From Escherichia coli (lineage in GTDB: Bacteria; Pseudomonadota; Gammaproteobacteria; Enterobacterales; Enterobacteriaceae), in the NCBI RefSeq assembly GCF_048403405.1, contig NZ_CP183129.1: a stretch of 64,000 nt of DNA, one strand, 5' to 3'. Shown here in pieces: positions 3,001 to 12,000 of the stretch. Within the stretch, counting starts at the first letter, position 1. Every line of letters starts with the position of its first letter. Position numbers: made by a program.

Positions 3001-6000
3001 GCAATGGCCCGTACTCAGGCACCGCACTCTGCAACTGCACAGTTCTTCATCAACGTGGTTGATAACGACTTCCTGAACTTCTCTGGCGAAAGCCTGCAAG
3101 GTTGGGGTTACTGCGTGTTTGCTGAAGTGGTTGAAGGCATGGACGTGGTAGACAAAATCAAAGGTGTTGCAACCGGTCGTAGCGGTATGCACCAGGACGT
3201 GCCAAAAGAAGACGTTATCATTGAAAGCGTGACCGTTAGCGAGTAATCGTGGCGACACTCTTTATTGCAGATCTTCATCTCTGCGCGGAAGAACCGGCGA
3301 TCACCGCCGGTTTTCTGCGTTTTTTAGCGGGGGAAGCCCGCAAGGCCGACGCGCTGTATATTCTTGGCGATCTGTTTGAAGCGTGGATTGGCGACGACGA
3401 TCCCAACCCACTCCATCGCCAGATGGCGGCAGCGATCAAAGCGGTGTCCGATTCCGGCGTTCCCTGTTATTTCATTCATGGCAACCGTGATTTTCTGCTC
3501 GGCAAACGCTTTGCCCGTGAAAGCGGCATGACGTTATTGCCGGAAGAAAAGGTGCTCGAACTGTATGGTCGCCGGGTGTTGATTATGCATGGCGACACGC
3601 TGTGCACCGATGACGCCGGTTATCAGGCTTTTCGCGCCAAAGTCCACAAACCCTGGCTGCAAACGCTATTCCTCGCCCTGCCGTTGTTTGTGCGCAAACG
3701 CATTGCCGCGCGAATGCGAGCGAACAGCAAAGAAGCCAACAGCAGTAAATCGCTGGCGATCATGGACGTTAACCAAAACGCGGTGGTCAGTGCGATGGAA
3801 AAACATCAGGTGCAATGGCTGATCCACGGGCATACCCATCGCCCGGCGGTGCATGAACTTATCGCCAATCAGCAACCTGCTTTTCGCGTGGTACTCGGTG
3901 CCTGGCATACGGAAGGTTCAATGGTGAAAGTCACGGCAGATGACGTTGAGCTGATTCATTTTCCGTTTTAAATACCCGCAACTTTGCTGATTTCACAGCC
4001 ACGCAACCGTTTTCCTTGCTCTCTTTCCGTGCTATTCTCTGTGCCCTCTAAAGCCGAGAGTTGTGCACCACAGGAGTTTTAAGACGCATGTCTTCCCGCA
4101 ATAATCCGGCGCGTGTCGCCATCGTGATGGGGTCCAAAAGCGACTGGGCTACCATGCAGTTCGCCGCCGAAATCTTCGAAATCCTGAATGTCCCACACCA
4201 CGTTGAAGTGGTTTCTGCTCACCGCACCCCCGATAAACTGTTCAGCTTCGCCGAAAGTGCCGAAGAAAACGGTTATCAGGTGATTATTGCGGGCGCAGGC
4301 GGCGCAGCGCACCTGCCTGGCATGATTGCCGCCAAAACGCTGGTGCCAGTGCTGGGCGTGCCAGTACAGAGCGCCGCACTGAGCGGTGTCGATAGCCTCT
4401 ACTCCATCGTACAAATGCCGCGTGGCATTCCGGTGGGTACGCTGGCGATTGGTAAAGCTGGCGCGGCAAACGCGGCGTTACTGGCAGCACAAATTCTTGC
4501 AACTCATGATAAAGAGCTACACCAGCGTCTGAATGACTGGCGCAAAGCCCAGACTGACGAAGTGCTGGAAAACCCGGACCCGCGAGGTGCGGCATGAAAC
4601 AGGTTTGCGTCCTCGGTAACGGGCAGTTAGGCCGTATGCTGCGTCAGGCAGGCGAACCGTTAGGCATTGCTGTCTGGCCGGTCGGGCTGGACGCTGAACC
4701 GGCGGCGGTGCCTTTTCAACAAAGCGTGATTACCGCTGAGATCGAGCGCTGGCCGGAAACCGCATTAACCCGCGAGCTGGCGCGCCATCCGGCCTTTGTG
4801 AACCGCGATGTATTCCCGATTATTGCTGACCGTCTGACTCAGAAGCAGCTTTTCGACAAGCTTCACCTACCGACCGCACCGTGGCAGTTACTTGCCGATC
4901 GCAGCGAGTGGCCTGCGGTGTTTGATCGTTTAGGTGAGCTGGCGATTGTTAAGCGTCGCACTGGTGGCTATGACGGTCGCGGTCAATGGCGTTTACGCGC
5001 CGATGAAACCGAACAGTTACCGGCTGAATGCTACGGCGAATGTATTGTCGAGCAGGGCATTAACTTCTCTGGCGAAGTGTCGCTGGTTGGCGCGCGCGGC
5101 TTTGATGGCAACACCGTGTTTTATCCGCTGACGCATAACCTGCATCAGGACGGTATTTTGCGCACCAGCGTCGCTTTCCCGCAGGCCAACGCACAGCAAC
5201 AAACACAAGCCGAAGAGATGTTGTCGGCGATTATGCAGGAACTGGGCTATGTGGGCGTGATGGCGATGGAGTGTTTTGTCACCCCGCAAGGTCTGTTGAT
5301 CAACGAACTGGCTCCTCGTGTGCATAACAGCGGTCACTGGACACAAAACGGTGCCAGCATCAGCCAGTTTGAGCTGCATCTGCGGGCGATTATCGATCTG
5401 CCGTTACCGCAACCGGTAGTGAATAGTCCGTCGGTGATGATCAACCTGATTGGTAGCGATGTGAATTATGACTGGCTGAAACTGCCGCTGGTGCATCTGC
5501 ACTGGTACGACAAAGAAGTCCGTCCGGGGCGTAAAGTGGGTCATCTGAATTTGACCGACAGCGACACATCGCGTCTGACCGCGACGCTGGAAGCCTTAAT
5601 TCCGCTGCTGCCGCCGGAGTATGCCAGCGGCGTGATGTGGGCGCAGAGTAAGTTCAGTTAACCTGGTGCTCATTTGATTGCCGGATGCGGCGTGAACGCC
5701 TTATCCGACCTGTGGAAACAGTGATATTTCCAGGTCGGATAATCAGCATCGCATCAGGCACAAATACCGAATGCCTACGACTACAGCGAAATACAGGTCC
5801 CCGCTTCGCCCGCCAGCGTCTCTTCAATCCGCGATAACGCCCCAATCCACGCAGGTTTACCACGGCTTCTGACATAGCCACTCACCGCAGTCACCTTCGG
5901 CCCCATCGAACCATCGGCTTTGGCAAATGGCGCTAACTCATCCGGTGTGGCATGGCGAATGGCACGTTGCTGCGGCGTTCCCCAGTTTTCATATACCGCA

Positions 6001-9000: not shown

Positions 9001-12000
9001 ACCGCGATCCCCGCATCTTCCAGCGTGGCGATTTGTTGCGAGCGGCATTGCGGGTCACGTTCGGTGCCTGTCACCGTGGCAATGGCATACAGTGGTTGAT
9101 TGTCTGGACGCGCGGCACAGGCTTTTTGCCAGGCGCTCACCAGCGAGGCGGCAGGATCGGCAGTCGCACCGAAGCCAATCACGACATCAAGCAGCAACAC
9201 GCGCACTTGCGGTTTAGCGCCGAGATCGGCAATTAACAGGTTGCGTAAGGTCGGGTCGATCATCGGATGGGGACGCCCGACGGTGTAAAAATCATCGCCC
9301 AGGTCGAGGATCTGATGTCCGTCGGCGTCGAGCATCATGCCATGTTGATGGGTATCGTCGGCTTCCACGCCAAGGTGTCCGGCAAGTAATCCCGCCGCTT
9401 CAGCAGCCAGCGTACCGCCGGTATACAAACCGCAAATAAATCCGCTGCTGACAGGTGCTATTGCGTTACGTCGCGCCGTGACGCGTGAAAGCAGGCAAGC
9501 CAGGCGTGCGGCCTCATCAAGCGAGGAGGCAAACCAGACATTCTCGTCGCGGGCCACCGCCGGGGTATAACCTAAAAACAGCGCCACCGTCGGTTTGCCA
9601 GTTGCTTTCATGGCATTAACAATTTTCAGACGCACAGCTTCGGCAGGTGGTTTTGAAACAAATGCCAGCACTTCGCTTTTCGCGTCGGCGCTTAACATTT
9701 CCAGCGCCGTTAGCGCACTGATGCCGCCCACTTCACGGCTGAGGTCGCGCCCGCCAAGACCAATCGCGTGAGTAATTCCCTCCTCTGCCAGCGCAATCTG
9801 TGAGCACAGCTCCTGAATCCCGGTACCGGAAGCGCCAATGACGCCAATGTTGCCTTCCGGCATCACGTTAGCAAAAGCCAGCGGCGTGGCGGCAATCATC
9901 GACGTACCGCAGTCCGGCCCCATCACCAGCAAGCCTTTATCGCGTGCGCGGGTTTTGAGTTGGATTTCATCTTCCAGCGTGACGTTATCGGAGAACATCA
10001 TCACGTTGAGGTTGCGATCCAGCGCCTGATTAGCCAGCTCCGCCGCATACTCGCCAGCCACTGAAATCAGCGCCAGACTGGCATCGGGTAATTTCTGACA
10101 GGCACTGTCCCAGCGACGCACCTGCGTCAACGCCTGGCTGCTGCCTGAACCCTGCGCCAGTTGTTTTAGCGCCTCTTCAAGCTGTTGCATAATCGCCTGC
10201 GCGATCCCCGCATCCGCCGCTTCGCTACGAATTGCCACGCAAATATCGTTCGGCGTGGCGTTATTAAAATCGTCATGCCAGAAACCTGTCGTCTCTAATA
10301 ACGCTTTATTGGCGGGCGTACCCATCATTACAGAAACATCATCAACATTTTCTGATTCGCTTAGTTTTCGTGAAATAATCATTAAACTGACCGAATCCTG
10401 AAAACACCCTTTTTTAATAAAGGCGTGGATCATAACAACTCCTTAAAAATTGCACCCATGGCAATTGCACGAGCAGTGTTAATGTGGCGATTACGGTATC
10501 GATGACAACGAGTAAATAAGGTGATGAATATCACACAGGGATTATTAACAAAAGAATTCAAATAACCGCCAGGCTATTACGTGTTATTTTTTTAATAAGC
10601 GTGGTTGTTTTAAAAACCAGGTTAAAAGCGAGCGGATTATCAAATAAATTCTAACTATATTTTTTTGCCTGTCTGGATCACATAATCCAGATATTTTCCC
10701 TGTATGTTAATTGCAGTCATGCTTCACACCGTCGTTAAAAAGGAAGACAGATGAAAATCAGTCGGGAAACACTCCACCAGCTAATCGAGAATAAACTCTG
10801 CCAGGCTGGGTTAAAACGTGAGCACGCTGCAACCGTGGCTGAAGTATTGGTTTACGCCGATGCCAGAGGGATCCACTCTCATGGCGCGGTGCGCGTGGAA
10901 TACTACGCGGAACGCATTTCAAAAGGCGGCACCAACCGCGAACCGGAGTTTCGTCTTGAGGAAACCGGGCCGTGTTCGGCAATTTTACATGCCGACAATG
11001 CTGCCGGACAGGTCGCGGCGAAAATGGGTATGGAACATGCCATCAAAACCGCCCAGCAAAAAGGCGTTGCGGTGGTCGGTATCAGCCGGATGGGTCACAG
11101 CGGCGCAATCTCTTATTTTGTACAGCAGGCAGCTCGCGCCGGGTTAATTGGCATTTCGATGTGCCAGTCCGATCCAATGGTGGTGCCGTTTGGCGGCGCG
11201 GAAATTTACTACGGTACTAACCCACTGGCCTTTGCCGCGCCGGGAGAAGGCGACGAGATCCTTACCTTTGATATGGCGACTACCGTACAGGCATGGGGAA
11301 AAGTGCTCGACGCCCGCTCGCGTAATATGTCTATCCCGGATACCTGGGCGGTCGATAAAAACGGAGCACCAACAACCGATCCATTTGCAGTTAACGCCCT
11401 GCTCCCTGCCGCCGGACCGAAAGGGTATGGCCTGATGATGATGATTGACGTCCTCTCAGGCGTCTTACTCGGCTTACCGTTCGGGCGACAGGTTAGTTCG
11501 ATGTATGACGATTTACACGCCGGGCGTAATTTGGGGCAATTACATATCGTTATTAACCCGAACTTTTTCTCCTCCAGCGAACTATTCCGTCAACATCTTA
11601 GCCAGACCATGCGCGAATTAAATGCCATAACCCCCGCGCCCGGTTTTAACCAGGTTTATTATCCCGGACAGGATCAGGATATTAAACAACGCAAAGCCGC
11701 CGTCGAAGGCATCGAAATTGTTGATGATATTTACCAGTATTTAATTTCTGACGCGCTTTATAACACGTCATACGAAACGAAAAATCCCTTTGCGCAATAA
11801 TTATTGAGACAGGACTTTCTTATGATTACACATTTCCGTCAAGCCATAGAAGAAGCGCTGCCCTGGCTTTCCTCTTTTGGCGCTGACCCAACGGGTGGGA
11901 TGACCCGTTTACTTTATTCGCCGGAATGGCTGGAAACCCAGCAGCAATTTAAAAAAAGAATGGCAGCAAGCGGGCTGGAAACACGTTTCGATGAAGTGGG

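Follow-up and report, generated by a model that had tools for sequence, protein, structure and literature searches.

Some records list ylbE of Escherichia coli K-12 as a pseudogene, which raises the question of whether an uninterrupted fdrA-ylbE-ylbF-ybcF cluster sets a strain apart from MG1655 and makes it a better model for the pathway that these genes serve. We addressed this question for the cluster located in a 64,000-nt stretch of E. coli DNA (contig NZ_CP183129.1, assembly GCF_048403405.1), referred to as the window. The answer is negative: an intact set of allFGHK genes, as the cluster is also designated, is the normal state of E. coli, and this includes the current MG1655 reference.

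Layout and identity of the four genes

ORF calling and translation revealed four uninterrupted frames with zero internal stops, which are packed on the minus strand between positions 5781 and 10433. Coordinates, strand and the absence of internal stops confirmed the first-pass annotation, which had described four intact frames divergent from allDCE. The latter genes are transcribed divergently from fdrA across a 317-nt intergenic region:

8766–10433, minus strand: fdrA/allF, 555 aa, ATG start; predicted large subunit of oxamic transcarbamylase
7497–8756, minus strand: ylbE/allG, 419 aa, ATG start; predicted oxamic transcarbamylase subunit, intact
6671–7486, minus strand: ylbF/allH, 271 aa, ATG start; predicted oxamic transcarbamylase subunit
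5781–6674, minus strand: ybcF/allK, 297 aa, ATG start; predicted catabolic carbamate kinase
10434–10750, unstranded: divergent allD/allF control region, 317 nt
10751–11800, 11822–13057 and 13068–13853, plus strand: allD, allC and allE, ORFs assigned with the TUM14771 annotation

The genes follow each other in the order F-G-H-K and in one direction within the all regulon, which is the layout of MG1655, and their junctions are short: 9 nt separate fdrA from ylbE and 10 nt ylbE from ylbF, while ylbF and ybcF overlap by 4 nt. Judged from sequence comparisons, the four frames represent genuine genes rather than chance ORFs, since several complete genomes contain annotated genes with 100% identity to the region, the products match known families, and dN/dS values relative to MG1655 range from 0.04 to 0.11 for all four genes, indicating purifying selection. 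The allDCE genes were also matched at 100% in other genomes.

FdrA matched the NCBIfam model NF004760 ‘acyl-CoA synthetase FdrA’ over residues 1–555 with 1033.8 bits (cutoff 433), contains the Pfam domains CoA_binding and Ligase_CoA and retrieved PDB entry 3dmy, ‘Protein fdrA’, with E=1e-300. YbcF scored 615.8 bits (cutoff 416) with the NCBIfam carbamate kinase equivalog NF006926, carries the Pfam domain AA_kinase and aligned with carbamate kinases in the PDB (E=1e-89 and weaker). A search of the NCBIfam library yielded no match for YlbE or YlbF; Pfam matched both, that is YlbE with AllG (PF06545, 1.4e-97) and YlbF with AllH (PF11392, 4.6e-29). In addition, YlbE matched PDB entry 3clq with E=1e-111, an ‘uncharacterized protein’ whose structure is that of a YlbE homologue. 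An upstream TTG was considered as an alternative start of ylbF (6671–7579, 302 aa). It was rejected because the extended frame overlaps ylbE by 83 nt, the ATG at 7486 agrees with every annotation, including those of MG1655 and TUM14771, and a GAGGA Shine-Dalgarno-like motif is present 5' of this ATG.

Probable role in the oxamate branch of allantoin catabolism

AllF, AllG and AllH constitute oxamic transcarbamylase (OXTCase) and AllK is a catabolic carbamate kinase (PMC11326118, PMC9843812), matching in function and names the oxamate carbamoyltransferase and carbamate kinase (allFGH/allK) to which the first-pass annotation had assigned the cluster. The region is very likely the standard E. coli allFGHK operon, which serves the oxamate branch of anaerobic allantoin catabolism. 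Our own data concern gene identity, intactness, synteny, conservation, selection and the position of the frameshift; activities, co-transcription and regulation are taken from the K-12 literature, in which OXTCase and carbamate kinase activities as well as co-transcription were demonstrated for the MG1655 alleles only (PMC11326118, PMC9843812). Orthology and a protein identity of 97–99% suggest that the window copy acts as the K-12 copy does.

The products of allDCE are ureidoglycolate dehydrogenase, allantoate deiminase and ureidoglycine aminohydrolase. AllD would oxidize ureidoglycolate to oxalurate and the allDCE operon would in this manner supply the substrate of AllFGH. Phosphorolysis of oxalurate by AllF-AllG-AllH would then generate oxamate and carbamoyl phosphate, whose phosphate AllK would transfer to ADP, yielding ATP and carbamate, and the carbamate would decompose to NH3 and CO2.

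According to its RefSeq product name, FdrA might instead be an acyl-CoA synthetase or an oxamate:CoA ligase and not a transcarbamylase subunit, for which the CoA_binding and Ligase_CoA domains and a weak similarity to succinyl-CoA synthetase alpha subunits could be cited. However, purified AllF-AllG-AllH catalysed the reaction oxamate + carbamoyl phosphate <-> oxalurate + Pi, and production of oxamate in vivo needs allF, allG and allH (PMC11326118). As the RefSeq record of MG1655 moreover names fdrA ‘putative oxamate carbamoyltransferase’, a CoA ligase function is extremely improbable. [quoted passage not shown] In contrast to the classical transcarbamylases, which it does not resemble in sequence, OXTCase requires three unrelated subunits, namely a succinyl-CoA-synthetase-alpha-like protein, AllG (DUF1116) and AllH (DUF2877).

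The ylbE allele in the window and in K-12

The first-pass annotation had stated that ylbE is frameshifted in MG1655, and had concluded that a strain with an intact copy would be the better model for the pathway. Indeed, a frameshifted ylbE is found in the W3110 RefSeq record and was formerly present in the MG1655 reference, in which one G was missing at ylbE nt ~252/253 and an A replaced the G at nt 114 (PMC4404585, PMC5460176, PMC4759930). However, ylbE of the current MG1655 reference NC_000913.3 (b4572, 548357–549616) is an intact 419-aa CDS that is collinear with the window gene, and the frameshift dates from the superseded version U00096.2. Alignment of both genes, which had been proposed as a check, was gap-free with 415 of 419 residues identical and a dN/dS of 0.048; both copies are intact, the very outcome that had been named as speaking against the claim. 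The decisive site is the following:

8501–8505, minus strand: run of five G (G5; C5 on the plus strand), ylbE nt 252–256; site at which the former K-12 reference and the W3110 entry read G4

Three-way and pairwise alignments showed that the window gene carries G5 at nt 252–256 and G at nt 114, as does NC_000913.3, and that both features of the K-12 pseudogene allele, G4 and A at nt 114, are absent. The W3110 record NC_007779.1, in which the locus and its flanking genes are as in the window, differs at both positions; its G4 ends the ylbE frame after 86 codons and the gene is annotated as ‘frameshifted’. Among 5,417 complete E. coli genomes, the G4 allele occurs in only 4–5, that is in W3110 and three K-12-derived records, a count that covered this one specific allele, in addition to which four other strains were inspected in full. 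G5 is near-universal in E. coli and is also present in another MG1655 assembly, C600 and ER1709.

MG1655 stocks are described as ylbE+ (PMC4759930, PMC4404585), and wild-type MG1655 makes oxamate from allantoin, whereas deletion of allG abolishes oxamate formation (PMC11326118). It is therefore hardly credible that the present strain differs from MG1655 by an intact ylbE and is for this reason superior for studies of the oxamate branch. It offers no special advantage, because ylbE of the current MG1655 reference is intact as well, and MG1655, in which the branch was worked out, remains a valid model. Version U00096.2 was superseded by U00096.3 at GenBank in 2013, as no specific isolate corresponded to the former (PMC5210515). 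Thus, the ‘ylbE pseudogene of MG1655’ is a legacy of U00096.2 that persists in the W3110 RefSeq record, and users of old coordinates, of the W3110 annotation or of reference-guided assemblies may still encounter it. The primary description of the variation among MG1655 stocks is reportedly that of Freddolino et al. 2012.

Strain-specific differences and the control region

The allFGHK genes of MG1655 (b0518, b4572, b0520 and b0521; NC_000913.3) and of the window agree in order, lengths, start and stop codons, junctions and the divergent allDCE operon, with ylbE intact in both. At 96.8–97.8% nucleotide identity and with 12, 4, 2 and 3 amino acid differences, respectively, they are distinguished by ordinary inter-lineage polymorphism only. 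The lowest identity (96.8%) and the highest dN/dS (0.11) were obtained for fdrA; ylbF, which has the same ATG start and length as b0520, and ybcF gave dN/dS values of 0.037 and 0.047, respectively. All four gene lengths are equal in MG1655, O157:H7, 042, CE0007a and the window. Moreover, the operon region was found in 5,407 of 5,426 complete E. coli genomes at a coverage of at least 80%. The operon is a feature of the core genome, and its enzymes and regulation are already published.

At this locus, only 7 of the 5,426 complete genomes are at least 99% identical to the window. Acquisition of the operon by horizontal transfer or recombination was considered as an explanation and rejected, given that the housekeeping genes on its flanks follow this pattern too. 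The low number is therefore a property of the lineage rather than of the operon, and the window belongs to an E. coli lineage that has been sampled sparsely.

A further possibility is that the frames are intact, but that activity or expression is altered by lineage-specific substitutions or by an additional A in the promoter region, and that flux is divided between the oxamate and glyoxylate branches otherwise than in K-12. In K-12, the single substitution D296Y in FdrA alters flux (PMC8550087), and among the five strains compared several residues occur in the window copy only, namely D47E and G217E in FdrA, R168H in YlbE, A110V in YlbF as well as L39Q and S93G in YbcF, in addition to one intergenic indel. 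However, the window copy of FdrA retains D296, all dN/dS values are low, and most differences from K-12 are common to other lineages, those of FdrA mostly to strains 042 and CE0007a. With five strains compared, ‘unique’ is a weak label, and the indel falls within the variable central part of the intergenic sequence. We consider it quite unlikely that variants such as FdrA G217E and YlbE R168H or the extra A have an effect comparable to that of D296Y, and retain the reading as a standard allFGHK operon.

Alignment of the allD-fdrA intergenic region with those of MG1655, 042 and O157 revealed that ~120 nt beside allD and ~100 nt beside fdrA are invariant. The nine differences between the window and MG1655, that is eight K-12-specific substitutions and the extra A in an A-run, are all located in the middle. 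As in K-12, the four genes would be co-transcribed from a promoter in this region, which would require AllS, conveying the allantoin signal, and ArcA, conveying anaerobiosis. The K-12 allF promoter is bound by AllS and ArcA, and both are required for anaerobic, allantoin-dependent expression (PMC12535856). A scan of positions 5600–10800 for promoters and terminators returned sites no more numerous than in shuffled sequence and no terminator-like site 3' of ybcF; therefore, we claim neither a promoter nor a terminator from the sequence.

AllS, which is needed for expression of the allF operon (PMC12535856), is encoded at higher coordinates in the window. The window contains the whole all regulon, with allS and allR among its genes:

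13983–24566: remaining all regulon genes, ORFs of the expected size, mapped on the TUM14771 annotation
24796–25722, plus strand: allS, LysR-type activator gene, assigned by ORF size and the TUM14771 annotation

TUM14771 is 99.98% identical to the window over positions 10387–49887.

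The fdrA-ylbE-ylbF-ybcF operon in the window

Inspection of window positions 5781-10433 revealed that fdrA-ylbE-ylbF-ybcF (also named allF, allG, allH and allK) is a known, conserved and ordinary operon in this strain. The first-pass annotation had described four uninterrupted frames divergent from allDCE, and the ORF list and the annotation of the near-identical TUM14771 locus reproduced its coordinates exactly:

8766-10433, minus strand: fdrA, 555 aa (ORF list and TUM14771 annotation)
7497-8756, minus strand: ylbE, 419 aa (ORF list and TUM14771 annotation)
6671-7579, minus strand: ylbF as an ORF, 302 aa from a TTG (ORF list)
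5781-6674, minus strand: ybcF, 297 aa (ORF list and TUM14771 annotation)

All four frames were checked and are free of internal stops; start codons, stop codons and lengths equal those of MG1655. In the TUM14771 annotation, ylbF is 816 nt long, its start falling on the ATG at window position 7486, and beyond a 317-nt gap allD, allC and allE are encoded on the other strand. Within the operon, neighbouring genes are separated by 9 nt or 10 nt or overlap by 4 nt, and every start is preceded 5' by a purine-rich Shine-Dalgarno-like motif.

The encoded proteins fall into the expected families. FdrA matches NCBIfam NF004760 over its full length (1033.8 bits, cutoff 433), contains the Pfam domains CoA_binding and Ligase_CoA and has a close homologue of solved structure (3dmy). 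YlbE matches PF06545, presently named 'Oxamate carbamoyltransferase subunit AllG', and a homologue has been solved without an assigned function (3clq). YlbF matches PF11392 ('AllH'), and sequence search returned no solved relatives. YbcF scores 615.8 bits against the carbamate kinase equivalog NF006926 (cutoff 416) and also matches solved carbamate kinases.

Origin and frequency of the ylbE frameshift

The first-pass annotation had described ylbE as frameshifted in MG1655, naming an intact MG1655 copy as a refuting result. Such a copy was found: the NC_000913.3 annotation gives ylbE (b4572, 548357-549616, YP_009029994.1) as an intact CDS of 1,260 nt. Its alignment with the window copy has 1,260 columns and zero gaps at the nucleotide level, and the proteins share 415/419 identities, likewise gap-free. 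Thus, MG1655 as now represented carries no frameshift in this gene.

The frameshift nevertheless has a genuine source, as it is carried by the W3110 RefSeq record NC_007779.1, in which ylbE (positions 3582-4840 of the retrieved locus) is a 1,259-nt pseudogene annotated as 'frameshifted'. Three-way alignment located the lesion to a G run at nt 252-256, which has five residues in the window (C5 on the plus strand, 8501-8505) and in NC_000913.3, and four in the W3110 record. With G4 the frame terminates after 86 codons. The sole further difference between the two K-12 records in this gene is synonymous (nt 114, G versus A in the W3110 record). These two differences are the changes that resequencing papers give against the older MG1655 reference: ENZ535 and ATCC 47076 have the ylbE+ allele (PMC4759930), and in NCM3722 the ylbE change 'restored an intact ancestral gene' (PMC3045373). 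According to EcoCyc, GenBank replaced U00096.2 by U00096.3 in 2013, the former not being precisely any specific isolate (PMC5210515).

Searching with 64 nt from the W3110 record, with the G4 run in the middle, gave matches in 5,417 complete E. coli genomes. Four records among the matches listed were 100% identical (W3110, CIT, LIM and CAR), and five genomes reached at least 99% identity. All remaining genomes, including another MG1655 assembly, C600, ER1709, O157:H7 and ATCC 8739, showed a one-base gap against the query, as G5 predicts. Moreover, the four strains examined in full (MG1655, O157:H7 PV15-279, 042 and CE0007a) possess all four genes at identical lengths. The intact state of ylbE is the norm in the species. 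In CIT, LIM and CAR the G4 allele is located at U00096.2-like coordinates, and its presence there may reflect reference-guided assembly instead of biology.

Function and control of the operon

The function assigned to the cluster in the first-pass annotation, oxamate carbamoyltransferase plus carbamate kinase, agrees with published work on K-12. Anaerobic wild-type MG1655 converted ~19.5 mM allantoin to 17.7 mM oxamate; deletion of allF, allG or allH abolished oxamate formation, and complementation of the triple deletion required all three genes together (Kim and Kim 2024, PMC11326118). Purified, His-tagged AllF-AllG-AllH interconverts oxamate plus carbamoyl phosphate and oxalurate plus Pi; the Km for carbamoyl phosphate is 1.3 mM and that for oxamate 36.9 mM (PMC11326118). 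The same group showed co-transcription of the four genes by RT-PCR and activity of purified YbcF as a carbamate kinase (PMC9843812). Since deletion of allG in MG1655 has a phenotype, allG must be functional there, which takes away the case for this strain as the better model of the pathway. The observation of an intact operon and the functional assignment held; the contrast with MG1655 was out of date.

The window operon would be expected to have the same function as its K-12 orthologue, judging from protein identity (97-99%), purifying selection on each gene (dN/dS versus MG1655: fdrA 0.11, ylbE 0.048, ylbF 0.037, ybcF 0.047), promoter-proximal conservation and a complete regulon, whose remaining members (glxK, ybbY, allB, allW, glxR, hyi, gcl, allR, allA and allS) were found at the expected sizes. 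Among five strains, FdrA D47E and G217E, YlbE R168H, YlbF A110V, and YbcF L39Q and S93G occur in the window only. A single FdrA change, D296Y, shifts flux in K-12 (PMC8550087); D296 is retained here. A quantitative effect of the window alleles is conceivable, yet nothing points that way.

The group that characterised AllF-AllG-AllH also showed that in K-12 expression of allF'-'lacZ depends on anaerobiosis, allantoin and the activators AllS and ArcA, and on direct binding of both activators to the allF promoter (PMC12535856). Alignment of the allD-allF intergenic region showed that ~120 nt beside allD and ~100 nt beside fdrA are invariant in the window, MG1655, 042 and O157. The window differs from MG1655 by eight substitutions, all K-12-specific, and its sole private change is an extra A (T7 on the plus strand at 10587-10593, A7 in the allF sense; six in MG1655, 042 and O157). 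A consensus promoter and terminator scan of 5600-10800 was uninformative, yielding sites in no higher number than shuffled sequence did and none resembling a terminator beyond ybcF. Close to allD, the divergent promoter region contains an inverted repeat with 9-bp arms (TGTCTGGATCACATAATCCAGATA) at 10670-10693; it is identical in the four aligned strains and could be a candidate regulator-binding site.

Lineage of the region

The window is a piece of E. coli chromosome. Of 5,426 complete genomes of the species, 5,423 match the operon region, and in 5,407 the match spans 80% or more of it; several, e.g. TUM14771, GN02461 and MS 69-1, are 100% identical to it there. The window's lineage is sparsely sampled: 7 of the 5,426 genomes are at least 99% identical over the operon, with the same pattern in the cysS-purK flank, and 13 over the allDCE-glxK flank. 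After these genomes, the next-best matches show 98.4-99.2% identity (window positions 1-16433 and 10387-49887). TUM14771 shares 99.98% identity with the window over ~50 kb. As the cysS-purK flank is as divergent as the operon, the divergence is region-wide and not operon-specific; import of the operon was considered and rejected, as there is no sign of it and the flanking genes share the operon's divergence pattern.

Elsewhere in the window, ~28359-32561 maps to 17327-21529 of the TUM14771 locus. There, the interval from ybbP to mnmH contains the gene of an RHS element core protein, a small ORF downstream of it and nearby fragments that the annotation calls partial pseudogenes, ylbG among them. 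From ~47771 onward (1-2117 of that locus and beyond), the window corresponds to part of siiEA in TUM14771, a giant BapA-related adhesin gene that carries a frameshift annotation and is followed by type I secretion genes.
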